Assembly: GCA_034435355.1 (NCBI GenBank)
Contig: DAOTXE010000019.1
Span: 9,026-73,025 of the forward strand
DNA from: Chloroflexota bacterium
GTDB taxonomy: Bacteria > Chloroflexota > Limnocylindria > Limnocylindrales > CSP1-4
Length of the DNA: 64,000 bases
Direction of reading: 5' to 3'
This document shows positions 13,990 to 60,577 of the stretch, piece after piece (within the stretch, counting starts at the first letter, position 1; every line of letters begins with the position of its first letter). A program made the translations under genes and the position numbers. Below the pieces are notes generated by a model. That model was given only the letters and a program-made list of their open reading frames with translations, ran no database searches and was not told the DNA's origin.

Positions 13990-15236
<1,247 letters not shown>

Positions 15237-15240
<4 letters not shown>

Positions 15241-16427
15241 TCTCGCCGGCGGAGGACGCTATCCGCGCAGAGATCGTCGCGCACGGTCCGATTCCGTTTG
15301 CGCGTTTCATGGCGCTCGCGCTGGGTCATCCCTCCGGTGGCTACTACGCAGGGCCACGGGCGCGACCGACTCGCCGCGGCGACTTCCTCACCGCGCCGGA
15401 GCTCCACCCGATCTTTGGCGCGGCGCTGGCACGGCAGCTGGCGGAGGCATGGAATCGTCTGGGCCGGCCCGACCCGTTCACGCTCGTCGAGTACGGGGCG
15501 GGCGCCGGGACGCTGGCCCTGGCGGTCCTCGCCGGTCTCCGCGACGATCGCTCGCCGCTCGCCGATGCCCTGGTGTATGCACCGATCGAGCTGAACACAC
15601 ACCGCCTGACCGAGCTGCACGAGCGGGCGGCGGCGACCGGCCTGCCCGTCGTCGCGGCGCCCGTGGCGCCGCCCGGAGCCGCGCCGGCGCCGGCTCCGGT
15701 CCAGGGTGCCGTGCTGGCCAACGAGTTCCTCGATGCGCTCCCCGTCCACGCGGTCGAGATCCGGGGCGGCGAGCCCCGTGAAGTCCACGTCGAGGTCGCG
15801 GGCGACGGCGCCCTCGTCGAGATCCTCATGCCTGCGTCCACTCCTGCGATCGCCGTCCGGCTCGACGCGCTCGCCGCGTCCGGCGTCACGTTCGCGGAAG
15901 GACAGCGGGCGGAGCTCTGCCTCGCGCTCGACGGCTGGGTCGCCGAAGTGGCGCTGTCCCTCGCGGCGGGGATCGTGCTCGTGATCGACTACGGCGCGCC
16001 GGCGCCCGAGCTCTACGGCCCGCGACGCTGCGCCGGCTCGCTGATGACGTACCGCGGCCACGTCGCCGACGGCTCGCCCGACGCGCCATACCGCGACGTC
16101 GGCGAGCGTGACATCACGGCCCACGTCGACACCACGACGCTGGAGCGGCTCCTGGCTGCGGCCGGCTTCGACGTCCTCGGAGACACGACCCAGGCCGAGC
16201 TGCTGGCGGGCTGCGGGCTGGACGACCTCCTCGAACGCGAACGCTGTCGATCGAGCGACGCGGCCTCGGCGCTGCTCCTGCGGAGCGCGGTCATGCGGCT
16301 GCTGGACCCGCGCCACCTCGGCGGCTTCCGGGCGGTGCTCGCGGGACGCGGGATGCCGGCCGGGCCGCCGCTTCGCGGCCTTGCCTGGCGGATGCCGGCC
16401 GGACGACCGGCGCCCCCGATGCGCTGA
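15237..16427 (+). CDS. class I SAM-dependent methyltransferase, MidA/NDUFAF7 (DUF185, COG1565) family
   Basis: IPFARFMALALGHPSGGYYA...GDFLTAPELHPIFGAALARQLAEAW...LVEYGAGAGTLALAVL...ANEFLDALPVH matches the MidA family. GTG overlaps the upstream stop (GTGA). Confidence 0.75.
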
Positions 16428-16659: not shown

Positions 16660-17016
16660 ATGGAAGGGATCTGGTACGTCGTCGGGTTTGTCGTGGCCGG
16701 CGTCTCGTTCGTGTTCCTGACGATCGGGCTGTCGTGGCTGATCAGCCACCGCACTCGCGGGAGCCGGGGTAAGGGCCTCCCCTACGAGAGCGGGATCGAC
16801 ACTTACGGGGACACCCACGGGCGCTTCGGCGTCTCGTACTACCTGTACGCCCTCCTCTTCGTCGCCTTCGACATCGAGGTGATCTTCATCTTCCTGTGGG
16901 CGCTGGTGATCCGGGACGCGATCCCGGGCATCCTGAGCTCGATGTTCCTGTTCGTCGGGATCCTCCTCCTGGGCCTTGCCTACGCGTGGCGGAAAGGCGT
17001 GCTCACGTGGCGCTGA
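16660..17016 (+). CDS. nuoA: NADH-quinone oxidoreductase subunit A
   Basis: ...[51 protein letters not shown]. Confidence 0.9.
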
Positions 17017-17750
17017 CGGAGCGCGGCAAGCCGAACCGTGACCTGGCCGTTTCGGCCGCACCGGCCCGGGACCTGCCCGCGCCGGCGGCGTCGCCGGACG
17101 ACGCGCTGGTCGAGGCGATCGTCGTGCCGAATGCACTCTGGCGGCCCGAGGACCCGCTCGGATACGGCGGCGGCGCGCTGCGCGACGACCCGCGCCTCGA
17201 GATGCGGCGCTACGACGAGTCCGGCGAGGGCCGCCGCGACGATGCGCGCTGGGCTGCGCTGGACATCGTGCCCACCAAGGCCGACTACGTGCTGGACCTG
17301 ATCCGCATGAACAGCCTCTGGCCGCTGCTGTCGGGCCTGGCCTGTTGCGCGATCGAGATGATGTCGACCGCGACCAGCCGCCACGACATCGATCGCTGGG
17401 GGATGTTCCCGTTCCGCGCTTCCCCGCGCCAGGCGGACGTGCTCATCGTGGCGGGCACGCTCACGACGAAGATGGCCGAGCCGCTGGTCCGGCTGTGGGC
17501 AGAGATGCCCGAGCCGAAGTGGTGCGTCGCGATGGGCGACTGCACCTGCTCGGGCGGGCGCTACAAGCGCAGCTACAGCACGGTCCAGGGGATCGACCGG
17601 GTCCTCCCGGTGGACGTCTACGTCCCCGGCTGCCCGCCCCGCCCGGAGGGCCTGATCTACGGGATGATGAAGCTCCAGCAGCTCGTCAAGGAGCGCCGCG
17701 GCCACTGGGCAGAGCGCGCGATCGGCCCCACCGTCCCGGACCAGGTCTGA
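17007..17750 (+). CDS. nuoB: NADH-quinone oxidoreductase subunit B (N2 cluster)
   Basis: [17 protein letters not shown]...[10 protein letters not shown]...VPGCPPRPE, so the N2 ligand motifs are intact. The start GTG 17007 has a GGAAAGG RBS and overlaps the nuoA stop. An alternative ATG at 17202 gives a 182-aa product. Confidence 0.85.
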
Positions 17751-17753
17751 CCG

Positions 17754-18305
17754 ATGGATCGTGCCTTCCGGGTCCGCCTCGAGCGAACGTTCGGGGACCT
17801 CCTGACCGGGCCCGTCCGCCAGCGCCACGACGAGACCGAGATGCGCGTCCGCCCCGGCGACGTCCCGGCCGTGATGCGGACCCTCCACGACGACCCAACG
17901 CTCCGCTTCGAATACCTGGGCGACCTCGCCGGCGTGGACACCGGCATGGACTTCCAGGTCGTCTACCACCTCTGGAGCGTCGTGACCCCGGACTGGCTCA
18001 GGGTGATCGCCGATGGGATCCCGCGCGACCAGCCGCGCATCCCCTCGATCACGTTCCTGTGGAAGGGCGCCGAGTGGATGGAGCGCGAGGCGTACGACAT
18101 GTTCGGCCTCGTTTTCGAGGGCAATCGCGACCTGCGCCGGATCTACCTCCCGGACGACTTCGTGAGCTTCCCGCTCCGCAAGGACTTCCACCTCCCGGAC
18201 GACGCGTCGCGCTCGCCCGGCGGCGGGGTGCGCCCGATGGAGGGCGCCGCCACGCCGGCCGACGCCGCGGAGCGCACCGTGCGCCGCACGGCCACGGCCA
18301 GGTAG
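17754..18305 (+). CDS. nuoC: NADH-quinone oxidoreductase subunit C (30 kDa)
   Basis: FEYLGDLAGVD...VVYHLWS...ITFLWKGAEWMEREAYDMFGLVFEGN. Confidence 0.9.
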   Translation: MDRAFRVRLERTFGDLLTGPVRQRHDETEMRVRPGDVPAVMRTLHDDPTLRFEYLGDLAGVDTGMDFQVVYHLWSVVTPDWLRVIADGIPRDQPRIPSITFLWKGAEWMEREAYDMFGLVFEGNRDLRRIYLPDDFVSFPLRKDFHLPDDASRSPGGGVRPMEGAATPADAAERTVRRTATAR

Positions 18306-18319
18306 CGCAGGGGACGCCG

Positions 18320-19534
18320 ATGACAACCCCGACTCGGCCCAGCCTCGACGATCCGGCCCTGGCCATCCCGCTCGACCATCCCGGGATCTTCGAGCCGATC
18401 CCCGTGGCTCGCACCGAGCGCCAGCAGGAGTTCTACGACCTCCGCGACGGCGAGATGCTCCTGAACATGGGACCGCAGCACCCGTCCACGCACGGCGTCC
18501 TGCGCGTGGTCCTCAAGATCTCGGGCGAGCAGGTGGTGGACCTGGACCCGGTCCTTGGCTACCTCCACCGCGGGGTCGAGAAGATCGCCGAGAACTCCGA
18601 CTTCCACCACATCATCAGCCAGCTCGACCCGCTCGAGTACATCAGCTCCCTCTTCTGCGAGTGGAGCCCGGTGATGTCCTTCGAGAAGCTCCTCGACGTC
18701 CAGGTCCCGCGACGGGCGGAGTACATCCGGGTCCTGACGGCCGAGCTGAACCGGATCGCCAGCCACATGCTCTTCCTGGGCTGGTACGCCCTGGACCTGG
18801 GCGGGATCACGCCGATCCTGTGGAGCTTCGCCGAGCGCGACGAGATCATGGAGATGCTCGCCGCGGTCACCGGCGCGAAGCTCCTCTTCAACTACTTCCG
18901 GATCGGTGGCGTCAACGGCGACCTGAACCACGAGTTCATGAGCCGCCTCGGCGACTGGATGAGCCGGGCGGGAACCCAGCTAGAGGCCGGGATGGGCCTC
19001 CTCAACGAGAACGAGATCTTCGTCCGGCGCGCGCGCGGGCTCGGCGTCCTCGACCGCGAGACCGCCCTCCGCATGTGCACCACGGGGCCGAACCTGCGGG
19101 CGTCCGGGGTCCCCTTCGACATCCGGCGCGCGCACCCGTACAGCGTCTACCCGGAGCTGGAGTTCGACATCCCGACCCGCAACGAGGGCGACTCCCTCGC
19201 GCGCTACCTGCTCCGCATGGACGAGGTCCGCCAGAGCCTCCGGATCATCGACCAGTGCCTGCACCAGATGCCCGACGGTCCCGTCATGGCGCGCCAGCCG
19301 CGCCTCCTGCGACCGCGCCCGGGCCGGGCCTACAGCGCGGTCGAGGGACCCCGCGGGCAGTACGCCTGCTACGCCATCAGCGACGGGACCGACCAGCCGT
19401 TCCGCCTGCGGATCCACGACCCGAGCTTCCTGCACCTCCAGCTGGTGGGGCTCCTCATGCCGGGCAACCTGATCGCCGACACGATGGCGATCATGGCGTC
19501 GCTGGACCCGGTCATGGGCGGCGTGGACAAGTGA
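18320..19534 (+). CDS. nuoD: NADH-quinone oxidoreductase subunit D (49 kDa)
   Basis: NMGPQHPSTHGVLRVVLKISGEQVVDLDPVLGYLHRGVEKIAE...RIHDPSFLHLQ. Confidence 0.95.
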   Translation: MTTPTRPSLDDPALAIPLDHPGIFEPIPVARTERQQEFYDLRDGEMLLNMGPQHPSTHGVLRVVLKISGEQVVDLDPVLGYLHRGVEKIAENSDFHHIISQLDPLEYISSLFCEWSPVMSFEKLLDVQVPRRAEYIRVLTAELNRIASHMLFLGWYALDLGGITPILWSFAERDEIMEMLAAVTGAKLLFNYFRIGGVNGDLNHEFMSRLGDWMSRAGTQLEAGMGLLNENEIFVRRARGLGVLDRETALRMCTTGPNLRASGVPFDIRRAHPYSVYPELEFDIPTRNEGDSLARYLLRMDEVRQSLRIIDQCLHQMPDGPVMARQPRLLRPRPGRAYSAVEGPRGQYACYAISDGTDQPFRLRIHDPSFLHLQLVGLLMPGNLIADTMAIMASLDPVMGGVDK

Positions 19535-19544
19535 GGGCCGCGGC

Positions 19545-20882
19545 GTGGTGAGCGCCTACTGGAGCCGCCTCTCGCTGGGCTCGCGGGCGTTCCTCGTGGT
19601 CGTCCCGGCCCTGCTCGTGGTGGGCGGGCTCCTCGCCGTCGCCGTCGCCCTGTTCCTGGGGCCGGTGCTGGACTTCATCAACGCGAACCTGCCCCTGGGC
19701 CGCTTCGTGCTGGCGGCCACGGCGCTCATCGTGGTCACGATCCCGATCGCGTTCCTGATCATCTTCATGGAGCTGAAGGTGATCGCCGCGATGAACCTGC
19801 GGGTCGGGCCCGACCGCGTCGGGCCGTACGGCACGTTCATGTCCGTGGTCCACGGCCTCAAGGTCCTCTCCAAGGAGGACTTCACGCCGCTGGGCGTCGA
19901 CGTCCCGATCTTCACCCTGGCGCCGATCGTCGTGTTCGCCTCGATCCCGCTGACGCTCCTGGTGATCCCGTTTGCGCCCGGGCTGTACGGCCAGGACTTC
20001 AACCTTGCCCTGCTCTACTTCTTCGCGATCGGCGGGATGAGCGTGGTGGGCCTGATGATGGCCGGCTGGGCGAGCTTCAACAAGTACAGCCTGCTCGGCG
20101 CGCTGCGGGCCGCCGCCCAGGCGATCAGCTACGAGCTCCCCCTGACGCTCTCCGTGGTCGGGATCATCATCCTGGCCGGGACGATGAGCCTGAACTCCAT
20201 CGTCGGCCAGCAGGCGGGATCGCTCTTCGACTGGAACATCTGGAAGCAGCCGCTCGGCTTCATCATCTTCTTCATCGCTGCCACGGCCGAGGCGAACCGG
20301 ACGCCGCTGGACATGACCGAGGCGGACCAGGAGCTCGTCGCCGGCTTCGCCACCGAGTATTCCGGCATGCGCTTCGGCTTCTTCTTCTTCGCCGAGTACG
20401 TCAACGTGTTCGTCGTCTCGGCGCTCACCACGGTCCTCTTCTTCGGCGGCTGGAACGCCCCGTTCAACTGGCCGTGGCCCGTCGCGATCAGCCTGGACCC
20501 GGGTGGCCTCGGGCTCGGCCTCATCTTCCTGATCGTCCTCGCCCCCGTCCTGGGCACGATCGTCCTGGGCCTGCCGTTCTGGCTCCTGTCGAGCCGGGTG
20601 AGCACGCTGCGGGCGCTGGTGGCCGGCTTCGTCCTGTTCAACCTGCTGATCATCGGGGCATTTCTGGGCTGGGCCTTCATCAGTGCCGCCTGGGTCTCGG
20701 GCCTGGTCTGGATGATGCTCAAGACCTTCGTCTTCGTCTTCATCTTCGTCCAGATGCGCGGGACGCTTCCGCGCGTGCGCGTCGACCAGCTGATGAGCTT
20801 CGCCTGGAAGTGGCTCCTGCCGGCAGCGCTCCTGAACATCTTCGTGACGGCGACCGCCGTCGTGATCGTGGCGAACCGGTGA
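19545..20882 (+). CDS. nuoH: NADH-quinone oxidoreductase subunit H (ND1)
   Basis: MELKVIAAMNLRVGPDRVGPYG...YELPLTLSVVG...EYSGMRFGFFFFAEY. GTG start with a GAGGG RBS. Confidence 0.95.
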   Translation: MVSAYWSRLSLGSRAFLVVVPALLVVGGLLAVAVALFLGPVLDFINANLPLGRFVLAATALIVVTIPIAFLIIFMELKVIAAMNLRVGPDRVGPYGTFMSVVHGLKVLSKEDFTPLGVDVPIFTLAPIVVFASIPLTLLVIPFAPGLYGQDFNLALLYFFAIGGMSVVGLMMAGWASFNKYSLLGALRAAAQAISYELPLTLSVVGIIILAGTMSLNSIVGQQAGSLFDWNIWKQPLGFIIFFIAATAEANRTPLDMTEADQELVAGFATEYSGMRFGFFFFAEYVNVFVVSALTTVLFFGGWNAPFNWPWPVAISLDPGGLGLGLIFLIVLAPVLGTIVLGLPFWLLSSRVSTLRALVAGFVLFNLLIIGAFLGWAFISAAWVSGLVWMMLKTFVFVFIFVQMRGTLPRVRVDQLMSFAWKWLLPAALLNIFVTATAVVIVANR

Positions 20883-20892
20883 GGGTGCGGCG

Positions 20893-21726
20893 ATGAGCTT
20901 CGTGCCCGGGATGGGGATCCTCAGGGGGATGGCGCTGACCCTGCGGCGCTTCTTCGCACCCAAGGTGACGATCCGCTACCCGGAGGTTCCGGCGGACATC
21001 GCGGTGAAGTACCGCGGCCGTCTGCAGCTGCTCTACGACGAGCACGGCACGCTCAAGTGCGAGACCTGCTTCCAGTGCGCCCAGGCGTGCCCCATCGAGT
21101 GCATCGACATGGGAGGAAGCGATACGAAGGGCCGCTACGCCGTCCACTGGGGCGCCTCGGAGACCTACGGCGAGCGACGGGAGGAGGCAGCCCTCCGGCG
21201 CTCCGGCCGCGAGGTGCCGGACCCGACCTACACCCACTTCGAGGCGATCGACGTCGCCGCGGTGGACCGGATCCTCGAGAACCACGAGTACGACCCGCAC
21301 CGGATGCTCTCGATCCTGGAGGCGATCCAGGCCGAGTTCGGCCACCTTCCCGTGGCGGCGCTCAAGCAGGTGAGCTTCACCACCGGCTCGTGGTACGCGA
21401 TGATCTACGGCACCGCCACCTACTACCGGCACTTCCGGTTCGAGAAGCCCGTCGAGCAGGTCGCGGTCTGTCGCTGCACGGCCTGCCTCATGCATGGCGG
21501 CGGGCGACTCGCGGACGGGATCGCGGACGGCCTCCGGACGGGGCTCGGGCGGGTCACGCCGGACGGCCGGATCCAGCTGGCCTGGCTCCCGACCCACCCC
21601 GCCGGCGCCGCCGCGCCCCTCGTCGCGCTCGACGGCGAGCCACAGCCGGAGGTGACGCCGGCCAACGCCACCGCGTGGGCCCAGGCGCTCGCCGGGGAGC
21701 ACCCCGCGACCCGGACGATCCACTGA
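20893..21726 (+). CDS. fused NuoI-like (N-terminal, single CxxCxxCxxxCP motif) / NuoE-like (C-terminal, thioredoxin-like, partial Cys set) protein - degenerate Fe-S subunits of the nuo operon
   Basis: N-terminus ILRGMALTLRRFFAPKVTIRYPEVP...YRGRLQL...CETCFQCAQACPIECI is NuoI/Nqo9-like, but the second cluster motif is replaced by ASETYGERREEAAL. C-terminus LSILEAIQAEFGHLPVAALKQVSFTTGSWYAMIYGTATYYRHFRFEK...VAVCRCTACLMHGGGRLADGI is NuoE/Nqo2-like and lacks the distal Cys pair. Confidence 0.8.
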   Translation: MSFVPGMGILRGMALTLRRFFAPKVTIRYPEVPADIAVKYRGRLQLLYDEHGTLKCETCFQCAQACPIECIDMGGSDTKGRYAVHWGASETYGERREEAALRRSGREVPDPTYTHFEAIDVAAVDRILENHEYDPHRMLSILEAIQAEFGHLPVAALKQVSFTTGSWYAMIYGTATYYRHFRFEKPVEQVAVCRCTACLMHGGGRLADGIADGLRTGLGRVTPDGRIQLAWLPTHPAGAAAPLVALDGEPQPEVTPANATAWAQALAGEHPATRTIH

Positions 21727-21730
21727 GCCG

Positions 21731-23080
21731 ATGACCACGATCCTCCCGACCCCCGCCGCCTGGCCGCACCCGCTCCTCGGGGATGCCCCGTCGGCGGACC
21801 CGGCCGACCTGGATGCCGCGGTTCGCGCCGGGGCCTTCGCGGGGCTCGCTCGCGCGCTCAACGACCTGGGCCCCACCCTGAGCACCGTCGCGATCGCCGA
21901 ATCCGGCCTCCGGGGACGGGGCGGCGCCGGTTACCCGGCCGCCGACAAGTGGCGCGCCGTCGCCGCGGCGGCGGAGGGCATCCGCTACGCGGTGGCGAAC
22001 GGCTACGAGGCCGACCCGGCCGGGGGAACCAACCATCACCTGATGACCGCCCGTCCGTACGCGATCGTGGAGGGCCTCGCGATCGCCGCGCTCGCGGTCG
22101 GCGCGGAGGAGGCGATCCTGGCGGTCCGCGCGGAGTACGCCGACGCGGTGGCCGCGCTCGAGCTCGCGGTTGCCGAGGCGGGCGAGGCCGGGTACCTCGG
22201 CGAGGACGTGCTCGGCTCGGGGCGCACGCTCCGGATGACGGTCCGGGCCGTGCAGGGCGCCTACATGCTGGGCGAGGAGACGGTCCTTCTCAAGGCGCTC
22301 GAGGGCCGGCGCGGGCAGCCCGAACAGCGGCCCCCGTACCCGTCCGAGCGCGGGCTGTGGGGCCGGCCGACGCTCGTCCACAACGTCGCGACGCTCGCGG
22401 CGATTCCCTGGATCATGGTCCACGGCGCGGACGCGTTCCGCTCGACCGGCGATCCGGGCGCGCCGGGCACGGTCCTCGTCTCGGTCAGCGGGGCCGTGGC
22501 GACCCCCGGCATCCTGGAGGTGCCGACGGGGACGCCGCTCGCGGACATCGTCGCGCTCGCAGGCGGCGTCGCGGGAGGGCGCCCGCTCAAGGCGATCCTG
22601 GTCGGCGGGCCGTCGGGCGGGCTCCTCCCGGCCGACCTCGCGGCCACGCCCTACACGTTCGGGGCGCTCCGGGCGGCCGGCGCGCATGTCGGGTCGGGAT
22701 CGGTCGTCGTGGCGGACGACCGGAGCTGCGTCCTCGACCTCGCCCGCCTGCTGACCCGCTATTGCGCGGACGAGGCGTGCGGCAAGACGATCCCCTGCCG
22801 GGTCGGGCTGCGCCGCCTCTCCGAGATCGGCGAGCGCATGGTCGCTGGCTTCGCCCGGCCGACCGACCCGCAGCTCCTGGCCGACCTCGCAGCGGACATC
22901 GCGGGCAGCGCGTTGTGCGACCACGAGCGGCTGGCCACGGGCCCGCTCGCGACCGCGATGCGATACTTCGGGGCCGAGGTCGACGCCCACATCCTGCGGG
23001 GCGTCTGCCCGGCCGGCGTCTGTGCCCCCATCGGGACCGCCGTCGCCGCCGGTCCCGCAACTACTGCGCACGGAGGATAG
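21731..23080 (+). CDS. nuoF: NuoF-like (51 kDa NADH/FMN-binding) subunit with altered N3 cluster motif
   Basis: GLRGRGGAGYPAADKW and GAYMLGEETVLLKALEGRRGQPEQRPPYPSERGLWGRPTLVHNVATL are present. The N3 motif reads EACGKTIPCRVG, with C-x2-T-x2-C in place of C-x2-C-x2-C. Confidence 0.85.
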   Translation: MTTILPTPAAWPHPLLGDAPSADPADLDAAVRAGAFAGLARALNDLGPTLSTVAIAESGLRGRGGAGYPAADKWRAVAAAAEGIRYAVANGYEADPAGGTNHHLMTARPYAIVEGLAIAALAVGAEEAILAVRAEYADAVAALELAVAEAGEAGYLGEDVLGSGRTLRMTVRAVQGAYMLGEETVLLKALEGRRGQPEQRPPYPSERGLWGRPTLVHNVATLAAIPWIMVHGADAFRSTGDPGAPGTVLVSVSGAVATPGILEVPTGTPLADIVALAGGVAGGRPLKAILVGGPSGGLLPADLAATPYTFGALRAAGAHVGSGSVVVADDRSCVLDLARLLTRYCADEACGKTIPCRVGLRRLSEIGERMVAGFARPTDPQLLADLAADIAGSALCDHERLATGPLATAMRYFGAEVDAHILRGVCPAGVCAPIGTAVAAGPATTAHGG

Positions 23081-23091
23081 GCACGACCGCG

Positions 23092-25731
23092 ATGGCCGAC
23101 CTCGTCTCCCGGCCCCCCGACCTCCTCCCCGCCGCGCGGCCGCAGCCGATGGTCGATTCGCTCGCCGAGCGGCTGCTCCGGACCCAGTCGCCGCAGCGCC
23201 CGCAGTCCACCCCGCTGATCCGCCTGGAGGTGGACGGGCGGGTCGTCGAGGGTCGCGAGGGGCAGACGATCCTCGAGGTCTGCCGGGACAACGGGATCGA
23301 GATCCCAACCCTCTGCTACGAGCCCAAGCTGCCCGGCTTCGGGGCCTGTCGGATGTGTGTGGTCGAGGTGGCGGGCGAGGAGCACCCGCCGATCTCGTGC
23401 TCGCGGCTGGCCGAGGCGGGGATGGTGGTCCAGACCCAGACCGAGGCGGTCCGTCGCCTGCGGCGCACGAACCTGGAGCTGATCTTCTCCGACCACAACG
23501 CCTACTGCCTGCCGCCGTGCCAGAACAAGTGCCCGAGCCACATAGACATTCCGGGCTTTCTCAAGGCGAATGCGGAGGGCGAGTTCCGCGAGTCGGCCCG
23601 GATCTTCAAGCGGACCATCCCGTTCCCCTCGATCCTCGGCCGGGTCTGCCCGGCGCCGTGCGAGGAGCACTGCCGCCGCGACGAGGTGGACGAGGCGATC
23701 GCGATCCGGGACAGCCACCGCTACGCCGGCGACCAGGTGCTCCTCGCGATGCGCGAGGAGGGCGTCGATCCGCCCCTCCCGTTCGAGCTCCAGCCGAAGT
23801 CGGGCAAGCGGGTGGCGGTCATCGGCTCGGGCCCGGCCGGCGCGTCGGCCGCCTACTACCTCCTGATCGCCGGCCACGAGGTGACGATCTACGAGCGCGA
23901 CGAGGCGCCCGGGGGGATGCTCCGCTACGGCATCCCGGAGTACCGGCTGCCGAAGGAGCGGGTCCTCGACCCCGAGTACGAGAGCATCACGCGGCTCGGC
24001 GGGCGCTTCATCTGCAACCAGGCGCTCGGGCGCGACTTCAGCCTGGACGACCTCCAGAACCAGGGCTACGACGCGGTCGTCGTCGCGATCGGCTGCTACG
24101 ACACGAACAAGCTCGGGATCCCGGGGGAGGACGCGGACGGCGTCATCGACGGCCTCGAGTACCTCAAGGTCGCCACGCTCGGCCTGCTCTACCCGGGTCA
24201 CGCGGGGAAGCGGGTGGTCGTCGTCGGGGGCGGCTTCACGTCGATGGACTGCTCGCGCACGTCGGTGCGCCAGGGTGCGTCGGAGGTGACGCTCGTCTAC
24301 CGCCGCGACATGAAGGACATGCCGGCCTCGGGCGAGGTCCATGAGGCGATCGAGGAAGGCGTCACGACGATCTTCCAGGCCGGCCCGACCCGCGTCATCG
24401 CCGACGATGCGGGCAGGGTGACCGGCGTGGAGTTCATCCGGATGCAGCTCGGTGCGCCCGACGCCTCCGGCCGGCGCCGCCCGGAGCCCGCCCCCGGCAC
24501 CGAGTTCGTGATCGCGTGCGACCGGGTCCTGCTCGCCATCGGCCAGGGGCCGGACCTGAGCTGGATCGGCGCCGGCTCCGACGGCGTCGAGGCCACCCGG
24601 AACCGGCGCCTGCGGGCCGACGCGGTCACCTTCGTGACGCCGCGGCCGGGCGTCTTCGGGACGGGCGACGTCCGCAACGGCGCGCAGACGGTGGTCCAGG
24701 CAGTCGCCGACGGACGCCGCGCCTCGTACGCCGTCGACGCGTTTCTGAAGGGCCTCGACCTCGGGGAGATCAGGACCCGCCAGACGCTGGCCGAGCCGCA
24801 GCCGGAGTTCCTCAGCATCGTGCCGTTCACCTCCGAGGTGAAGGCGCCCCGCCATCGGCTGCGGAGCATGCCGGCCGAGGAGCGCCGCACAAGCTACGTG
24901 GAGTACGAGATCCCGTACACCCCGAGCGAGGCCGTCGCGGAATCGACGCGCTGCCTCCAGTGCACCTGCGAGGCGATCGGATTCTGCGACCTGCGTCGGC
25001 TGGGGATCGAGTACGGGACCACCCTGCGGACACTGGAGCCGCAGAACAACCAGGGGGCCGGCTTCCGGAGCGTGACCGAGAACCGCTTCACGGGAGCCAA
25101 CCACGACTACGTCCGCGACGACAGCCACGCCTTCATCCTCCGCGAGCCGTCGCGCTGCATCGACTGCGGCCGCTGCGCGAACGTGTGCGCCGAGGTCGTC
25201 GGGGCGGCCTGCTACGACTTCATGCGGATCGGCTTCGACACGCTCGTCACCACGCCGCTCGACATGAGCCTCAACGACACGCCGTGCGTCTCGTGCGGTC
25301 GCTGCGCCGAGACGTGCCCCACCGGCGCGCTCATGCCCAAGCCCCGGATCCTCGAGAAGTACGAGGTGGACGAGAGCCGCTGCATCCTGTGCGGGATCTG
25401 CGTCGACGCCTGCCCCTACGATGCGCTCCGCTGCGGACCCGACTTCGAGCTGGCCCACGTCAGCCGCGAGGAGCCCATGATCGACCTGATCGCGATCGCC
25501 GCGGTGGACCGCGAGACCGAGATGACCTACGTCCACAGGGAGCGCGACTGGCTGGAGCGGGCGATCGCCTCGGGGCGCGACGTCGGGCCGCGTCAACTGC
25601 CCGTGCTTCCGGCCTCGCTCGCCGAGCGGGGCGGCGGGCACGGCGGGGGTCGCGCGAGCGACCCGGACAACGGCCACAATGGCACCGGCGCGGCCGGCGG
25701 CGCCTTCCCGGAGCACGGACGCAACCGGTAG
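23092..25731 (+). CDS. chimeric Fe-S flavoprotein: NuoG N-terminal-like [2Fe-2S] domain + GltD-type NAD(P)H/FAD oxidoreductase + C-terminal 2x[4Fe-4S] ferredoxin domain (occupies nuoG position)
   Basis: [19 protein letters not shown]...[16 protein letters not shown] matches NuoG N1b. [25 protein letters not shown]...[57 protein letters not shown] and [25 protein letters not shown] match GltD. The C-terminus carries [23 protein letters not shown] and [12 protein letters not shown]. Confidence 0.85.
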
Positions 25732-25799
25732 ACCCAGCGCGAGGGCGGGCGGAAAGCCGCCCGGTCGACGCGCAGCGCAGGCTGGAGGGAGAGGAACAG

Positions 25800-26333
25800 G
25801 TGGCCATACCGGATACCATCCCGGTCCTCGGGATCAGCTGGAGCGACGTGCTCTTCCTGGTCCTTGCGGCCGTGATGCTCGGGTCCGCCTTCCTCGTGGT
25901 GACCCTTCGCGACATCATCCGCTGCGGGCTGGCGATGATCGTGGCCTTCGGGGCGCTCGCCGGGATCTACGTGCTGCTCGGCGCGCCGCTGGTGGCCGCC
26001 GCGCAGGTGCTCGTCTACATCGGCGCGATCGCCGTCCTGATCCTCTTCGCGGTCATGCTGACCCAGGCGAAGAACGCGCCCGTCCGGCTCGTCTTCCAGG
26101 CGCAGGCGTTCCCCGCCGCGATCGCCGCCATCGTGCTGGCAGTGCTGATCGCGCTCACGGTAAGCGCGACGGACTGGGGCGCGGCGGCGAAGCGGCTCGC
26201 GACGGCGACGGACGCGCTGGCCCGCCTGCTGTTCACGTCGTACGTGCTGCCGTTCGAGGTCGTGAGCGTGCTCCTGCTGATGGCCGTGATCGGGGGCATC
26301 TTCCTGGCGAAGCGCGAGGGCCGGGACGCGTGA
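25800..26333 (+). CDS. nuoJ: NADH-quinone oxidoreductase subunit J
   Basis: A hydrophobic ND6-like protein. GTG start with a GGAGGGAGAGG RBS. Confidence 0.9.
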
Positions 26334-26641
26334 GCCAGAGCCTCGACGCCTACCTCAGCGTGTCCGGGATCCTGTTCTCGATCGGCATGTTCGGGTTCCT
26401 GGCCCGGCGCAACGCGATCAGCATGCTGATGTCCATCGAGCTGATGCTGAACGCGGTGAACCTGACGATCGTCGCCTTCGGGGCCTTCATTCCCGCCCTC
26501 AACGGAACCGCCTCCATCATCGCCCTCGTCGTGATGGCGGTCGCCGCGGCCGAGGCCACGGTCGGCCTCGCGATCGTCATGGCCATCTACCGGAACCGCC
26601 GCACACCGCTGGTCGACGAGTACGACAGCATGCGCCAGTAG
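26330..26641 (+). CDS. nuoK: NADH-quinone oxidoreductase subunit K
   Basis: [24 protein letters not shown]...[20 protein letters not shown] overlap with nuoJ. Confidence 0.9.
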
Positions 26642-26663
26642 CCGCGGGAATCGGGCCGCCTCC

Positions 26664-28676
<2,013 letters not shown>

Positions 28677-28687
28677 GCAGGCAGACC

Positions 28688-30238
28688 ATGGACGCCACGT
28701 CCTTCCCGATCCTCAGCGTGATCATCTTCCTGCCCCTCGTGGGGGCGGTGGTGGTCGGGCTCATTCCGCGGCGCAACCTGGCCGCGATCCGCGGGACCGC
28801 GCTGCTCTTCGCCCTCGCGACGTGGGTCGTCAGCCTGTGGCTGGTCCTCGGCTTCCTGCCGGGACGCCAGCTGGTGGCATCCGCGGCGGGCTCGTTCGAG
28901 TTCGTGCAGACGATCGACTGGATCCCGGTCTTCGGGATCCAGTACAAGGTCGGCGCCGACGGCCTCTCGGTGGCGCTCGTAGTCCTGACCACGACACTGT
29001 CGTGGATCTCGATCCTGGCCAGCTTCTCGCCGATCAAGGAGCGGGTGAAGGAGTACATGATCTCCTTCCTCGTCCTCGAGGTCGGGATGCTGGGCGTGTT
29101 CCTGGCCCTGGACCTGTTCCTGTTCTACATCTTCTGGGAGGTGGTCCTCGTCCCGATGTACCTGATCATCGGGATCTGGGGCGGCGCGAACCGGATCTAC
29201 GCGACGATCAAGTTCGTCCTCTACACGCTCGTCGGGTCGCTCCTGATGCTGGTGGCGATCCTCGCCACGGCGTTCACCTACCAGCACGCAACCGGGTCGT
29301 GGGTCGGTGCGTTCGACCTGGAGAAGCTCGCCGGAGCCGGCTTCGACGGCACGTTCCAGGTCTTCGCCTTCGCCGCGTTCGCGCTGGCCTTCGCGATCAA
29401 GGTCCCGATGTTCCCCTTCCACACCTGGCTGCCGGACGCGCACGTCGAGGCACCGACGGCCGGCTCGGTGATCCTGGCAGGCGTGCTGCTCAAGCTCGGC
29501 GCGTACGGCTTCATCCGGTTCGCCATCCCGCTCTTCCCGCACGGCGCCCACGTGTTCGCGCCGCTCATCATCGCCCTGTCGCTCATCGCGATCATCTACG
29601 GCGCGATCGTGGCCATGGTCCAGCCCGACCTCAAGAAGCTCGTCGCCTACAGCTCCGTGAGCCACATGGGATTCGTGACCCTGGGCATCTTCATCTTCCA
29701 GGCCCAGGGCCTCCAGGGCGCGATCCTCCAGATGGTCAACCACGGCATCATCACGGGCGCCCTCTTCCTGCTCGTCGGCGTCATCTACGAGCGAACCCAC
29801 GACCGGACGATCGCGAAGATGGGCGGCCTGGGCGCGGTGACGCCGGTCTACTCGGCCGCCCTGGGGTTCTTCGTGTTCGCGTCGGTCGGCCTGCCCGGCC
29901 TGGCCGGGTTCGTCGGCGAGTTCCTCGTCTTCCAGGGCGCGTTCGCATTCAACCCGTGGGTCGGCGTGTCCGCCGCGTTCGTCATGATCTTCGCGGCCGG
30001 GTACCTGCTCTGGATGCTCCAGCGCGTGTGCTTCGGCCAGGTTTCGGAGTTCCTGTCGAACCTCGGTCACCACCTGACCGACATGCGCCCCACGGAGATC
30101 CTGACGCTCGCCCCGCTGGGCGCCCTGACGGTGGTCCTGGGCCTCTATCCCGCCCTCGTCCTGGACCTCATCGCGGGCCCGGTCAGGGCGGTCCTGGCCG
30201 CGGTCGACCCATCGGTCGCGATGGCTGTCGGCCGCTGA
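28688..30238 (+). CDS. nuoM: NADH-quinone oxidoreductase subunit M
   Basis: FYIFWEVVLVPMYLIIGIWGG...FPFHTWLPDAHVEAPTAGSVILAGVLLKLG. Confidence 0.9.
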   Translation: MDATSFPILSVIIFLPLVGAVVVGLIPRRNLAAIRGTALLFALATWVVSLWLVLGFLPGRQLVASAAGSFEFVQTIDWIPVFGIQYKVGADGLSVALVVLTTTLSWISILASFSPIKERVKEYMISFLVLEVGMLGVFLALDLFLFYIFWEVVLVPMYLIIGIWGGANRIYATIKFVLYTLVGSLLMLVAILATAFTYQHATGSWVGAFDLEKLAGAGFDGTFQVFAFAAFALAFAIKVPMFPFHTWLPDAHVEAPTAGSVILAGVLLKLGAYGFIRFAIPLFPHGAHVFAPLIIALSLIAIIYGAIVAMVQPDLKKLVAYSSVSHMGFVTLGIFIFQAQGLQGAILQMVNHGIITGALFLLVGVIYERTHDRTIAKMGGLGAVTPVYSAALGFFVFASVGLPGLAGFVGEFLVFQGAFAFNPWVGVSAAFVMIFAAGYLLWMLQRVCFGQVSEFLSNLGHHLTDMRPTEILTLAPLGALTVVLGLYPALVLDLIAGPVRAVLAAVDPSVAMAVGR

Positions 30239-30254
30239 CGGGAGCTGCCTGACG

Positions 30255-31736
30255 ATGACCTGGTCCGATTTCGCCACCGTCGCCCCCTTCGCGGCCGCCG
30301 TGGCCGTGGCGGCGCTCGTCGTCGTGGCCGACATCGTGCGGCCCGGAAACCGGCACCTGGCGCTGGGTGTTGCCCTGGCGGGCCTCGTCGGCGTCGGTGC
30401 GCTCACCCTGTGGACCGGCCAGTCGCCGGGGACCGCCTTCGGCGGCATGTACAAGGTCGACAACCTGACGACGTTCCTCGACACGATCTTCGTCGCGATC
30501 GCGGCGATCACCTGCCTCTTCGCGCCCGACTACCTCGAGCCGCGCGGGCTTCCGGTCGCGGAGTTCGCCGCCATCCTCGTGTTCGCGCTGAGCGGCGCGA
30601 TGCTGGTGTCCGCGTCCGCGGACCTCATCGTCCTGTTCGTCGGTCTCGAGCTCATGGTGATCCCGGGCTACCTGCTCGCCGGGTATCACAAGCGCGACGC
30701 GCTCTCCACCGAGGGCGCGATCAAGTACTTCCTGCTCGGCTCGTTCTCGAGCGCGATCTTCCTCTTCGGGCTCGCCTACATCTGGGGCCTGACCGGCTCC
30801 ACCCGGATCGCCGACGTGGCGGCCCGGATCGGCGCGGTCATGGCCGGCCAGGCACCGCTCTCCCCCGGTCTGGCGATGGGCCTGGCCTTCCTCACGACCG
30901 GGGTCGCGTTCAAGATGGCCGCGGTCCCGTTCCACTACTGGACGCCCGACGCGTACCAGGGCTCGCCGACGCCGGTGACCGGCTACCTGTCGGTGGGCCC
31001 GAAGGTGGGGGCGTTCGCGGTGGTGCTGCGGGTCTTCGCCGAGGCCCTCCTCCCGCTTCGCCAGGAGTGGGTGATCGTCTTCTTCGTCCTCGCGGCGCTG
31101 ACCATGACGCTTGGCAACCTCGTGGCGCTCACGCAGGACAACGTCAAGCGGATGCTCGCCTACTCGTCGATCGCCCACACCGGGTACATGCTGGTGGGCC
31201 TCGCGGCGTACGCGGCAGGGGTGCTGCAGGGCCTCGAGGGCCTCCTCTTCTACGGCGCCGCCTACGCGTTCATGAACCTGGGGGCGTTCGCCGTGATCGC
31301 CGCCCTCCAGAAGCGCCCCGGGGTCAGCAGCCGGCTGGAGACGTTCGCGGGGCTCGGGCGGCGTGAGCCGGCGCTCGGTCTCCTGATGGTCCTCTTCCTG
31401 CTCTCCCTGACCGGGATCCCACCGACGGCCGGCTTCTTCGCCAAGGCGTACGTGATCCTCGCCGCCGTGCAGGCCGGGGGATGGCTCACGGCCCTCGCCG
31501 TCATCGCCGTCCTCAACGCGGCCGCGGCCGCGTTCTACTACCTGCGGGTCATCGTCTACATGTACATGCGCGATCCGGCGGGCGAGCCGGCCCCCGTGGG
31601 CCACGGCGCGCTGCTCCGCCTGGGGCTCGCCATCACGGCAGTCATGACGGTGGTCCTGGGCCTCTTCCCGGGGCTCATCCTGACGAGCGTCTCGTCGGCG
31701 GCGCAGGCAATCGGGGTCGCTGTCGCCATCCATTAG
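30255..31736 (+). CDS. nuoN: NADH-quinone oxidoreductase subunit N
   Basis: VGLELMVIPGYLLAGY...AVPFHYWTPDAYQGSPTPVTGYLS. Confidence 0.9.
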   Translation: MTWSDFATVAPFAAAVAVAALVVVADIVRPGNRHLALGVALAGLVGVGALTLWTGQSPGTAFGGMYKVDNLTTFLDTIFVAIAAITCLFAPDYLEPRGLPVAEFAAILVFALSGAMLVSASADLIVLFVGLELMVIPGYLLAGYHKRDALSTEGAIKYFLLGSFSSAIFLFGLAYIWGLTGSTRIADVAARIGAVMAGQAPLSPGLAMGLAFLTTGVAFKMAAVPFHYWTPDAYQGSPTPVTGYLSVGPKVGAFAVVLRVFAEALLPLRQEWVIVFFVLAALTMTLGNLVALTQDNVKRMLAYSSIAHTGYMLVGLAAYAAGVLQGLEGLLFYGAAYAFMNLGAFAVIAALQKRPGVSSRLETFAGLGRREPALGLLMVLFLLSLTGIPPTAGFFAKAYVILAAVQAGGWLTALAVIAVLNAAAAAFYYLRVIVYMYMRDPAGEPAPVGHGALLRLGLAITAVMTVVLGLFPGLILTSVSSAAQAIGVAVAIH

Positions 31737-43716: not shown

Positions 43717-46700
43717 TCAGGTTCGTGGCGGCTCGGGCGCTGCGGGCGCCTCGGGCGCTTCCGGCCACTCGGGCGCTGCGGGCGCTGCGGGCGGCTCCGA
43801 CAGCAGGGCAGGCGCGGCCTCGTCGGCCAGTCGCTCGGCGATCGCGATGCGCCACACCCAGGCGCTGTACCCCACGATCAGGACCGAGACGAGCACCGCG
43901 GCGAGCAGGAGCAGCGGCCACGGGCTGGCGAACGACACGGTGAACGGCGCGTCCGTGTTCACGGCGAACTGGAACGGGTAGAGCCACGTCGGCAGGAGGC
44001 CCTGATACCAGTTGAAGACGCCGTTCGGGAGCGGCAGCCCTGACCAGTTCGGGTAGAACGCAACGAACGCCACGGCCGAGGCGAGCACGACGCCGACGGC
44101 GAACCGGCGCGGCGAGCGGGCCGTCCACACGAGCCAGGCGAGCGGCCCGAGGACCAGCAGGAGGAGCAGCGAGAGAAGCTCGCCCGGGATGCTCGGGGTC
44201 TGGACCAGCGGGGTCACCGGGAGCAGGACGGCCGCCGCAACGAGGCAGGCGAGGGCAATGAGCCCGGTCGCGACGATTCGGCGTGAGCCCGCTGCAGCCG
44301 CGGCCCGGTCCGCGCCCGCCCGGACCAGCCGGTCGAGCCGGACCAGCTGCCAGACCAGGAGCCCCGCGCCGGCCGCGAGGACGACGATGAGGCCGACGAC
44401 CTGGGCCGTCAGCGAGAAGGGCAGGGACGCGGCGGCGGTGCACGCTTGGGAACCGGGGTCGACCCGCTCGACGCCGGCGAGCCCGCACAGCGGGCTCTTG
44501 CCGAACCAGAGGACAACCGGGACGAGGAGCGCCGCTGCGGCGGCGCCCCGGGCCAGCAGCCATGTCCGGGCCGACGGACCGTGCCAGAGCTCCGCCACGA
44601 AATAGGCCAGGCCGAGGATCACGAATGGGACCGTGGCGTAGTAGTGGTATTCGAACGTGGCCCGATCGATCCGCGCCCAGGAGAGCCAGGTGAAGGCAAT
44701 CACGACCGAGATGAGCCCCAGCCCGAGGCTCCTGCGCCGGTAGGCCTGCCAGGCGACGAAGGCGATGGCCGGGATGGCGAGCCACCAGATGACCGGGTTG
44801 CCGCCGTCGTAGATGGCGCCCGACATCGACCCGCCGAAGGACTGCTGGAAGAACCAGACCGGCTTGAGGTCGAGCGGCCAGGCCCACCAGGGCGACGCGG
44901 CCGGGTGGGTCGCCCGGAGGTTGTTGTGGTAGTCGTACATCGCCTTGGTGAGGTCGAGCAGCGTCTGGCCCGTGTTGCCCGGCGGCCAGGAGGACGTCAG
45001 GCGGTTGCCCAGGGCCACCCAGGGCAGGTACAGGGCGACGTAGACCGCGGCCGGGATCGCCCCCAGCGAGATTCCCGCCCAGGCCACGGGCAGGCCCCGG
45101 CGCCAGCCCGGGCGGAGCCAGCCATCCGGAGGGGGCGCAGGCGGGCCGAGCAATGCCGCGGGATCGTCGGGTGCGATCGGCGGCGCGAGCGGGCCGAAGC
45201 CGAGCCGTCCCGCGAGCCAGAAGGCCCCGGCGGCCAGCGCGGAGATGCCGAAGCAGCCGAGCGCGAGCGCGAGCGCCGCAGGCCCGAGAGCGAGCGGGAT
45301 CGCCACCAGCGCCACCAGAGCCCCGGCCGCGGCGGGCCCGGCGACCGCGATCCAGACTTCCTCGACCGACCACGCGATCGGGTGGAGCACCGTCACCGCG
45401 GCGGCCGCGAGGGTCAGCCCGATCATGATGGCGAGGAAGGCAAGGTTGCCTCCGGACGTCGCGCCGGCCGGGACCGAGACGGCCATGTACCCGAGCACGG
45501 CCGTCGCGCCGGCGAGGCCGAGGACGACCACGACCCGTCCGAGCGCCGACCGGACCAGGAGCAGGAGCGCGACGGCAGCGAGCGCATAGAGTCCGACCCA
45601 CTTGGACCCCATGGCGAGCCCGAGCAGAAGTCCCACGACCGGCATCCCGACCCAGAACGCCCCGCGCCAGCGCCACGCCCCCGTCCAGATCGCCGCGAAC
45701 AGCGTGACGGCGGCAACGATGAAGAACGCGACGTACGTGTCGTTCATGCCGATGCGCTGCTGGACGAAGAACATCCCGTCCAGCAGGCCGAAGATGCCGG
45801 CAAGCACGGCCACCGAGCGCCGACGGAACAGGATCCGCGCAAGCAGGAAGAGGAGCCCGGCCATCAGCGCGCCGAGGATCACGCCCGGGAGTCGCCAGGC
45901 GAACGCGTGCTGGCCGATGTCGACGGAGGCCGCCTGGCCGGTCGCCCCGAACACCAGGATCTGCTCGCGGTCCGTGGCCGGCACGTCCGGGTTGACGTCG
46001 GTGGCCCAGGCGGCGGGCGCGAACGGCAGGCGGGCGTCCGCGAAGACGCTGTTGCCGCGCGGCTCCACGACGTAGACGGTCCAGCCCGTGCCGTCCATCG
46101 TCCGGCCGAGCGCGTGGATCATCTGGCTCGCCGCGTCATAGGTGACGCGGCTGATGGCGGCGGGCATCCAGACGCTCTGCGAGAGGGTCGGCGCGCTCCC
46201 GTCCGCCGGGGTCCCGATCACGGCCAGCGACGACCCGGTCGCCGCGTACAGGAAGGGCGAGTCGAGGCCCGGGGCCGCGACCACGCTCGTGGCGCCCCCG
46301 GCCAGCGGAACCTGCCCGGTCACCGCGCCGCTCGTCGGCTCCATGAACGTCACGCCGGCGGCATCGGACACCGCGACCTGGGAGAGGCTCGTGTCGCTCA
46401 GCCCGGCGAGCGCCCCGCTCGCGATGGCGGCGTCGATCTGCGTCCTCTGGGCGGAGATGGCAGTCGAGATGACCACCTGCGACGCCTTCGAGCGGAGCTG
46501 CTGCTCGTAGGTTGCCGTCGTGCCGCCCAGGATCCTGGAGAGCTGGGCGGCGACGAACGTCGGGTCGGTCACGCTCGCCGGGTCCGCCACGAGCGCGGCG
46601 ACGGTGCCGGCATCGGCAACCTCCGAGCGGCCCGCCAGGATGACCGAGGCGAGCCGTGCCCCCGTTGCCGCGTCGAGCGAGACGAGCGTGTCGCCGGGGG

Positions 46701-48909: not shown

Positions 48910-48990
48910 CCGGGCCTGCTCGCCCGCCCGCGCCCGCTCGCCCGGTGCGGGGCCAGCCAAGGGGAACGGCCTCCGTGATCGAGCGCTGAG

Positions 48991-57336: not shown

Positions 57337-57377
57337 GGGGGCCGGTGCGGCCGGTCCTCCGGCCGCCGGGTGGCCGT

Positions 57378-58496: not shown

Positions 58497-58948
58497 AGGC
58501 TCGTCACTCCGGGTGATCGGAACCGGGGCGGGCGGGGTCTGTCAGCCGGGCCCGGAGGCAACCGATTCGTGGTTTGGTGCATCCTCGCATATCGAGTCAT
58601 CACCGTCGTCATCATGGTGTTGATGCCGTGGATGAACGTGCGCGCTCGTGCGCAGGGCCGCGGTGCACGGAGGCCGCGCCGAGGTGGACGAAGCCCCGGG
58701 AGCGGTGTGTTCGCATGAGCCGACAGCGTGGACGAGCTGTCGCCGCCGATCCAGGATGTGCCGACGCGCGCGGTCGCCTGCCCTGATCGTCCCCCGCGAG
58801 AGGCGTCGCCGCGAGCCGCATTTTCCACACGCGGGGAGGGTTTTCCACTGAATTCGACCGTTTTTCCACACGCAGGCGGCGCGGCGGGCGCTGTCACCGG
58901 CATGCCGAGCGCCGCCGGGCCCGGCGGGATCCGTCGCGCAGCCGGTCG
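58497..58948. other. candidate oriC in dnaA-dnaN intergenic region: phased DnaA-box-like 9-mers and locally AT-enriched stretch
   Basis: TTTTCCACA at 58821, TTTTCCACT at 58841 and TTTTCCACA at 58862 are in the same orientation at about 20-21 bp spacing. Opposite-strand T(T/C)CGTCCAC-like sites sit at about 58627, 58683 and 58726. The segment 58578-58626 is AT-enriched relative to the genome. Confidence 0.55.
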
Positions 58949-60406: not shown

Positions 60407-60560
60407 AGAAGGAGCCTCTTCCAGCCTTGCTGGAGGAGCGCTCCCGGGCCGGCCCCGGGGCTCACCCGGGTCTGCCCGCAGGCGTCCCGGCGACCGTGGG
60501 CCGGGGCATGGTAGCACCGCCCGGGTCGGCCCCGCAAGGCGATCCGGCACCCAAAGCGCG

Positions 60561-60577
60561 ATACTCCCAGGGAGTAT
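60561..60577. repeat. perfect palindrome ATACTCCCAGGGAGTAT followed by TTTT in dnaA/rpmH divergent control region
   Basis: Read directly from the sequence. It is AT-rich relative to its surroundings. Confidence 0.7.

Follow-up and report, generated by a model that had tools for sequence, protein, structure and literature searches.

A putative split NuoI around an NfnABC/StnABC-like module in the complex I operon of Limnocylindria

Among the 14 core subunits conserved universally in complex I is NuoI, and we asked what has become of it in a 64,000-nucleotide stretch of a Chloroflexota genome from the class Limnocylindria (GenBank assembly GCA_034435355.1, contig DAOTXE010000019.1, positions 9,026 to 73,025 of the forward strand; hereafter the window, 72% G+C), where a single open reading frame (ORF) at 20893–21726 joins half of NuoI to a NuoE-like domain. 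A sequence-only reading had seen in this fusion a possible structural scaffold retained after the loss of clusters N6a, N6b and N1a. We found instead that the missing half of NuoI is encoded intact at the end of another gene of the same operon, and we consider it probable that a complete nuo operon has its nuoI interrupted by a three-gene module of the NfnABC/StnABC (Bfu) type, likely non-bifurcating, and that the two NuoI halves rejoin in trans.

Both parts of the fusion product were recognisable by homology, as that reading had described, and the fusion is conserved over its full length. Residues 9–81 correspond to the N-terminal half of NuoI, being matched by E. coli 7awt_I and Thermus 2fug_9 as well as by the mycobacterial subunit (Table 1) in sequence comparison with the PDB, and residues 12–76 cover positions 1–64 of the 121 in the NuoI profile TIGR01971; the four cysteines of NuoI motif 1 were 100% conserved among 78 sequences. 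Residues 117–261 scored 72.8 bits against PF01257 (gathering cut-off 24.8) and thus have the NuoE/BfuC fold, with NfnC/StnA as the best PDB sequence matches (2e-16). When the fusion protein was modelled alone with AlphaFold2, the predicted local distance difference test score (pLDDT) was ~90 for the NuoE-like domain and 35–55 for the NuoI half; a Foldseek search with the former returned 9bp5_C, 7p5h_C and 8oh5_A as top matches, with probability 1.0 to NfnC, HydC and NuoE. In public databases the protein is named only 'NAD(P)H-dependent oxidoreductase subunit E'. A search of all six frames of 20793–21826 returned no second ferredoxin motif, in agreement with the earlier statement that none is hidden in another frame.

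The absent half of NuoI was located 3.6 kb downstream of the fusion ORF, at the end of the 879-residue product of 23092–25731, so that ~4.2 kb of other coding sequence lies between the two halves. Residues 752–797 of this protein cover TIGR01971 positions 71–116 of 121 and match residues ~93–142 of Paracoccus, plant and mammalian NuoI/TYKY in the PDB (E ~2e-12). They include the 'missing' motif 2, with its cysteines 100% conserved among 52 sequences, between flanks that are NuoI-like (KYEVD...RC before the motif, DFELA after it). With this second motif and the NuoI C-terminus that accompanies it in place, the proposed loss of N6a and N6b finds no support.

The two halves are complementary. Joined in silico, they gave a single contiguous full-length alignment to NuoI/TYKY of 84 bits (E 9e-23), compared with 35–50 bits for each half alone against the same PDB entries, and eight of eight NuoI cysteines were 100% conserved across 52–78 orthologues. 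Neither polypeptide would be called NuoI by itself: the fusion scored 47.7 bits and the 879-residue protein 53.3 bits against TIGR01971, for which the curated cut-off is 113.05, and the two CxxCxxCxxxCP motifs that NuoI carries in one polypeptide are distributed here as one per ORF. The full set of NuoI features (N-terminal YPE segment, both motifs and DFE C-terminus) is present between nuoH and nuoJ, and no second canonical nuoI or nuoEFG occurs within the window. In the 2×[4Fe-4S] ferredoxin fold, each cluster is held by three cysteines of one motif and a fourth cysteine of the other, so the two half-domains would be expected to bind clusters only together; the low pLDDT of the N-terminal half when modelled alone is consistent with a half-domain that needs its partner.

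The fusion is widely conserved. It was encoded in at least 521 species genomes in a scan of one genome per species, and independent projects had yielded more than 100 protein clusters with the full-length fusion at 60–91% identity, or hundreds at 56–92%. The best 80 of these 521 or more genomes were all Chloroflexota metagenome-assembled genomes, among which the only more specific labels were Candidatus Limnocylindria, Limnocylindrales, Limnocylindrus and Aquidulcis. Across 80 Limnocylindria loci compared by tblastn, the order nuoD-H-[I'E]-F-[A..I'']-J-K was kept in every locus of sufficient length; the start and stop of the fusion and the starts of neighbouring genes were conserved, genes were tightly spaced or overlapping, and in many genomes the stop of the fusion overlapped the start of the following gene by 4 bp. 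A sequencing or assembly artefact, such as a frameshift or mis-join that created the fusion or removed cysteine codons, had been named earlier as a possible cause. The unusual architecture is all that speaks for it, and we find it hardly conceivable, as hundreds of assemblies made independently in many projects show the identical architecture with conserved start and stop, no motif was found in an alternative frame, and third-position G+C (0.95 throughout) supports the annotated frame.

The same conservation bears on the scaffold interpretation, according to which motif 2 decayed in place to ASETYGERREEAAL after N6a/N6b and N1a were lost. Such decay would account for an ORF with a single NuoI motif and no second NuoE Cys pair, and a weak G/EE/A resemblance does occur at about the right distance past motif 1. 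We nonetheless consider it very unlikely. Motif 2 and the NuoI C-terminus are intact at the end of the third module gene, the rejoined halves align contiguously to NuoI, and the altered NuoE site has C195 and H235 conserved at 99%. The remainder of the operon is likewise intact, although no electrons pass to N2 without N6a and N6b in complex I, as structures from Thermus and E. coli indicate. Finally, the linker of residues 82–116 is almost invariant within the class, which points to strong constraint, yet it has no counterpart in distant relatives with the same split architecture; the 'EEA' previously taken for a remnant of motif 2 is most likely a chance resemblance.

The operon as a whole (16660–31736) has the order nuoA-B-C-D-H-[I'::E]-F-[A::I'']-J-K-L-M-N, in which the inserted module occupies 20893–25731 and the Q-module and P-module genes of complex I (nuoA, B, C, D, H, J, K, L, M and N) are all present, with the N2 ligands. 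The nearest solved relatives of all three module proteins are NfnABC of Caldicellulosiruptor (9BOV/9BP5), StnABC of Sporomusa (8OH5) and NfnABC of Thermococcus sibiricus (9N5U). The NuoF-like protein, the least conserved of the three, aligned to residues 112–527 of the 584 in 9bov_B (E 3e-101), and lacks the N-terminal 2Fe-2S and C-terminal 2×[4Fe-4S] domains of BfuB. The 879-residue protein aligned over residues 42–774 to residues 3–699 of the 1178-residue 9bov_A (E 1e-163) and, with its 2Fe-2S, GltD-like FAD/NADP(H) and HydA-type 4Fe-4S domains, has the composition of an Nfn-type BfuA. Within it, the motifs GSGPAG, GGGFT and VYRR of the GltD domain are conserved, the PDB matches of that domain being the NfnI large subunit and GltD, and all cysteines of the HydA-type domain are 100% conserved. 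No match to a molybdopterin domain was obtained in the 879-residue protein, whose alignment to NfnA ends at residue 699, where that domain starts; it is therefore not a canonical NuoG with a molybdopterin-like C-terminal domain.

The module shares with NfnABC and StnABC (Nfn-Bfu enzymes) the three subunits, the gene order C-B-A and the domains of the A subunit with its inserted GltD. Its E-like domain also keeps the NfnC-like FRFE(K)P linker, which is functionally important by mutation in T. sibiricus NfnC (PMC12018979). It differs from these soluble enzymes in lying within a membrane complex I operon and in carrying the NuoI C-half where the A subunit would have its molybdopterin-like domain; the B subunit is without sites B2–B5, and the ligands of C1 and B1 are altered.

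The alteration of C1 concerns the NuoE-like domain, where NuoE, Nqo2 and BfuC have four cysteines in the pattern C-x4-C ... C-x3-C. The first pair is present in the fusion (C193 and C198), whereas the positions of the second pair are occupied by T234 and G238 and no cysteine occurs beyond C198, as had been noticed from the sequence. C193, C195, C198 and H235 are 99% conserved. All four canonical cysteines are kept in three distant relatives (P0219, P0224 and P0231), and a relative at 51% identity (P0121) has a cysteine at the third canonical position plus the extra one. In view of this conservation and the possibly intermediate ligand set in P0121, the NuoE site seems to have had its ligands replaced step by step rather than to have decayed, and the four conserved residues could form a rewired three-Cys-one-His 2Fe-2S site, a zinc site or no metal site. 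The loss of N1a proposed earlier is thus uncertain: the second Cys pair is indeed gone, but the conserved residues and the third cysteine of P0121 argue in the opposite direction.

A comparable change was found beside FMN (flavin mononucleotide) in the NuoF-like protein, where the canonical N3/B1 pattern CxxCxxC...C is lacking and the second cysteine is replaced by Thr353. This threonine is ~99% conserved in 61 orthologues, and C350, C356, C396 and H398 are 100% conserved. The fourth-ligand region of the site (22916–22924) reads C396-D-H398 and is invariant. The pattern suggests a cluster held by three cysteines and a non-Cys ligand, or a 3Fe-4S cluster.

These losses are relevant to whether the module bifurcates electrons. 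In Stn, Hyd and Nfn-Bfu enzymes, mutagenesis shows that bifurcation depends on both cluster C1/A1 and domain B3/B4 (PMC10482914, PMC11829005), and the requirements comprise C1/A1, B1 and the ferredoxin-like B3/B4 domain (PMC10482914, PMC11829005, PMC12018979). Since the Limnocylindria module has neither the B3/B4 domain nor the N-terminal 2Fe-2S domain of BfuB, and its C1 and B1 ligands are changed, it is most likely non-bifurcating. A true bifurcating or confurcating Bfu enzyme that couples NADH, NADPH, ferredoxin and quinone, similar to the 'Nuo-Bfu' discussed below, appears improbable at this locus. It would fit the affinity of all three subunits to bifurcating NfnABC/StnABC, the fact that BfuB is complete and the BfuC cluster canonical in the same split-NuoI operon of a distant clade (that of L086), and the prediction of membrane-bound Nuo-Bfu (PMC9304861). 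However, the F-like subunit of the window lacks both domains, as do all orthologues examined from Limnocylindria, both clusters adjoining FMN have altered ligand sets, and deletion of B3/B4 or C1/A1 abolishes bifurcation in characterised enzymes (PMC11829005, PMC10482914).

Under the reading that we prefer, a NuoI split by a non-bifurcating NfnABC/StnABC-like module, the first module gene would supply the membrane-proximal N-terminus of NuoI with Cys motif 1, joined to a BfuC/NuoE-like subunit, the second the bare core of a NuoF-like FMN/NADH subunit, and the third an NfnA/StnC-like subunit in which the NuoI C-half with Cys motif 2 takes the place of the molybdopterin-like C-terminus. The halves would reassemble in trans, placing both N6a and N6b at the interface of two polypeptides, and the reassembled NuoI would clamp the NAD(P)H module onto NuoB, NuoC, NuoD and NuoH and wire it to N2 and quinone. 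NADH would deliver electrons at FMN, and NADPH at the flavin adenine dinucleotide (FAD) of the GltD domain; if the clusters are occupied as predicted, these electrons would pass through those of the A subunit to N6a, N6b, N2 and quinone, with protons pumped by the intact membrane arm. We infer that the enzyme most likely acts as an NAD(P)H:quinone oxidoreductase that pumps protons and takes in hydride at two sites. NADPH rather than NADH is the presumed substrate of the GltD domain, as judged from the conservation of its motifs, and the enzyme might run in reverse or as a transhydrogenase.

Two features weigh against this account. In the F-like subunit, the loop at the NADH site has diverged and is variable (NGYEADPAGG, compared with NADEGDPGAF), which, taken with the N3 motif that is short of one cysteine, means that NADH oxidation at FMN is not assured. 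The other feature is that the profiles Fer4_7, Fer4_9 and Fer4_21 match residues 728–779 of the 879-residue protein as one dicluster unit, which would favour a different pairing of motifs: C732–C742 and C764–C774 would form a 2×[4Fe-4S] domain of their own, and motif 1 would pair with C689–C699 or persist as a single-cluster or empty appendage. The 21-residue gap between the two former motifs is likewise typical of small ferredoxins. We regard this pairing as quite improbable. The window contains exactly three CxxCxxCxxxCP motifs (starting at 21058, 25285 and 25381) and one further motif without the trailing Pro, C689–C699. The counterparts of 689–699 and 732–742 pair mutually in NfnA, StnC and HydA (9bov_A 612–699), and because these two motifs align to the HydA-type pair, one orphan motif is left in each of the two proteins. 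Moreover, the flanks of motif 2 are specifically NuoI-like in both the PDB and the TIGR01971 comparisons, and the same layout is retained in the much shorter A subunit of one distant lineage (L085).

The comparison beyond the class drew on a HMMER scan of 1.84 billion representative proteins. Full-length relatives at 27–29% identity (P0219, P0224/P0277 and P0231) combine a NuoI-like N-terminus with a NuoE domain, and their contigs (L082/L086, L083/L084 and L085) have the order nuoA-B-C-D-H-[I'::E]-...-nuoJ-K-L-M-N. In every distant case, TIGR01971 positions ~1–66/71 lie on the E fusion and positions ~70–115 at the C-terminus of the A subunit. The partner proteins vary. L086 (GCA_040769125.1, 6255–20762, on a contig of 1.84 Mb), which belongs to the same large clade as L082, encodes a complete BfuB of 636 residues (N-terminal 2Fe-2S, ESCGKCVPCR and C-terminal 2x4Fe-4S), a BfuC with a canonical cluster and an 824-residue Nfn-type A subunit ending in the NuoI C-half; the label 'Thermoleophilia bacterium' on one member of this P0219 clade is a hint only to its affiliation. 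This type is a candidate membrane-bound hybrid of Nfn-Bfu and complex I that may still bifurcate. In L083, the 799-residue A subunit ends in SYTLDVSRCIFCSECVEVCPHNALAVSPNFELA. In L085 (1321–6023), the GltD FAD/NADPH domain is found at the C-terminus of BfuB (1048 residues), and the A subunit of 265 residues, with 2Fe-2S and HydA-type clusters, still has the NuoI C-half at its end. This last type is rare, with two protein clusters found, and a protein-database search with its A subunit (P0446) recovered mainly ordinary short NuoG/FdhA-like proteins that matched only the N-terminal 86%.

Judged by these comparisons, the constant element across lineages is the putative clamp made by the split NuoI, the form found in Limnocylindria looks like a reduced derivative, and the predicted design is older and wider than Limnocylindria. 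We hold the broader proposal tentatively, with slightly less than even confidence: Limnocylindria and at least three other lineages would have a complex I with an Nfn/Stn-type input module set in a split NuoI, inter-subunit N6a and N6b, NADPH- or NADH-driven pumping and reverse, proton-motive-force-driven NADP+ reduction, and, where the Bfu core is intact, a bifurcating or confurcating NADH-NADPH-ferredoxin-quinone enzyme. A separate cluster of pyruvate:ferredoxin oxidoreductase and BfuB genes ('Por-Bfu' of Schut et al.) on contig L081 (7819–15933) contains another half-ferredoxin::BfuC fusion (P0264/P0291). Orphan half-ferredoxin motifs may be a general way to dock BfuC on partner modules.

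How far the arrangement departs from known systems depends on the element compared. With NuoI/Nqo9/TYKY (NDUFS8, ligating N6a and N6b), it shares the YPE segment, both Cys motifs, the DFE(L/M)A C-terminus and the position between nuoH and nuoJ, but the fold is split over two polypeptides, each piece being fused to an input-module subunit. With NuoE/Nqo2/NDUFV2 (N1a) and BfuC (HydC, NfnC and StnA), it shares the PF01257 fold and an adjoining NuoF-like partner; it differs from them in the N-terminal NuoI half and in the conserved C195 and H235 in place of the second Cys pair.

Related exchanges of the input module have been proposed. Schut et al. (2022) predicted the membrane-bound enzymes 'Nuo-Bfu' and 'Mbh-Bfu', whose clusters carry the BfuABC genes in the middle; the former is described with 14 subunits (A–N) and from Deferribacteres, Proteobacteria, Planctomycetes and Nitrospirae (PMC9304861). 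As in the window, a BfuABC-type module there replaces NuoEFG as the input inside a complex I-like cluster, whereas the main text of the same article mentions no fusion, split subunit or GltD-type A subunit in a Nuo context (PMC9304861); in Limnocylindria, NuoI is split, the A subunit is of the Nfn type and the hallmark domains of BfuB are missing. The BfuB definition given in that text requires a ferredoxin domain, so the Limnocylindria protein would have been missed by the filter of the survey (PMC9304861). Degli Esposti (2015) described mbx-like operons with a GltD-related flavoprotein in the place of NuoI (PMC4758237). These resemble the window in having a GltD-type NAD(P)H flavoprotein at the NuoI position (PMC4758237), but in the window NuoI is retained, though split, and the GltD domain lies within a bigger NfnA-like protein whose partners are NuoE- and NuoF-like. 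Searches of open-access papers and bioRxiv preprints returned no description of a split NuoI, of the fusion of both halves to input subunits or of an Nfn-type module between nuoH and nuoJ, consistent with the earlier remark that the architecture was not recognised from described complex I operons.

If assembled as proposed, the locus would represent a natural split of a core subunit and a natural precedent for a split dicluster ferredoxin as a docking device. The origin of the N-module of complex I is a long-standing question, on which a soluble Bfu/Nfn-type module that can be grafted onto a proton-pumping core would bear directly. Complex I specialists are likely to be surprised by what would be a concrete, testable case of N-module acquisition with possible NADPH respiration, its function being deduced from homology. 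Limnocylindria are widespread, abundant in soils and lakes and known from few or no cultures; a proton-pumping complex I that accepts NADPH, if real, would alter models of their redox balance and energy yield. For annotation, a single-gene hidden Markov model cut-off for NuoI leads to such genomes being reported as lacking the subunit.

Table 1 Positions of the nuo genes, the inserted module and its domains and motifs within the window
Feature	Position	Strand	Details
nuoA	16660..17016	+	first operon gene; PF00507 here in orthologous loci
nuoB	16896..17750	+	PF01058, E 1e-27; N2 ligand motifs including GCPPRPE
nuoC	17754..18305	+	PF00329, E 2e-38
nuoD	18320..19534	+	tblastn synteny, 80 loci; PF00346 here in relatives
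nuoH	19545..20882	+	PF00146, E 1e-102
Fusion protein, NuoI N-half :: BfuC/NuoE-like	20893..21726	+	277 aa, ATG start, TGA stop, ORF intact
NuoI N-terminal half, residues 9-81	20917..21135	+	aligned with residues 7-79 of mycobacterial 8e9g_I, E 8e-11
NuoI motif 1, CETCFQCAQACP	21058..21093	+	CxxCxxCxxxCP, C56/C59/C62/C66
Class-specific conserved linker, residues 82-116 (...HWGxxEtYgERReExALRRsG...)	21136..21240	+	many invariant columns
BfuC/NuoE-like thioredoxin-like domain, residues 117-261	21241..21675	+	PF01257
CRCTAC: canonical ligands C193 and C198, extra C195	21469..21486	+	99% conserved
H235, beside position of lost third Cys ligand	21595..21597	+	99% conserved; aligned to canonical NuoE
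NuoF/BfuB-like FMN subunit, core only, 449 aa	21731..23080	+	PF01512, PF10589, SLBB
Variant N3/B1 motif CGKTIPC (in ACGKTIPCR; second Cys to Thr353)	22778..22798	+	canonical CGKCxxC
BfuA/NfnA-like subunit, 879 aa, ending in NuoI C-half	23092..25731	+	Fer2_4, Fer4_20, Pyr_redox_2, Fer4
N-terminal [2Fe-2S] domain (N1b-like)	23218..23442	+	PF13510, E 2e-19; C75/86/89/103 100% conserved
GltD/NfnB-like FAD and NADPH domain, two 4Fe-4S sites	23506..24756	+	PF14691, PF07992
HydA-type 2x[4Fe-4S] ferredoxin domain, C689-C699 and C732-C742	25156..25317	+	aligned to 9bov_A, 8oh5_C pair
NuoI C-terminal half, residues 752-797, conserved tail to ~residue 840	25345..25482	+	TIGR01971
NuoI motif 2 ('missing' motif)	25381..25416	+	C764/767/770/774
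nuoJ	25800..26333	+	synteny; PF00499 here in relatives
nuoK	26330..26641	+	synteny
nuoL, 670 aa	26664..28676	+	Proton_antipo_N, Proton_antipo_M here in relatives
nuoM	28688..30238	+	ORF
nuoN	30255..31736	+	ORF

Several further features of the window were recorded. The first ~120 residues of the nuoB ORF (16896–17250) form a Pro/Ala/Arg-rich extension that overlaps the end of nuoA, and the true start of nuoB is probably farther downstream. Directly upstream of nuoA, on the plus strand at 14682–16427, lies a gene for a PF02636 Methyltransf_28 protein (E 2e-45), a family that we take to be MidA/NDUFAF7. Members of the MidA/NDUFAF7 family methylate an arginine of the NuoD homologue in mitochondria, and the gene product may serve complex I specifically as a maturation factor. 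At 15153–15200, 5.3 perfect copies of a 9-bp unit (GGCGCAGAC) stand in tandem and give (AQT)n-type repeats in overlapping ORFs, which lie just before the methyltransferase gene region or within its start.

Farther along, minus-strand recF, dnaN and dnaA and plus-strand yidC occupy 56197–62720, which places the window beside the chromosomal replication origin, ~30–45 kb from the nuo operon. A minus-strand ORF of 2191 residues at 43717–50292 shows, close to its C-terminal end, no more than weak PMT-type protein O-mannosyltransferase domains, and may comprise several genes or be mis-framed in high-GC DNA; it adjoins a TMEM260-like mannosyltransferase gene at 50361–51980.

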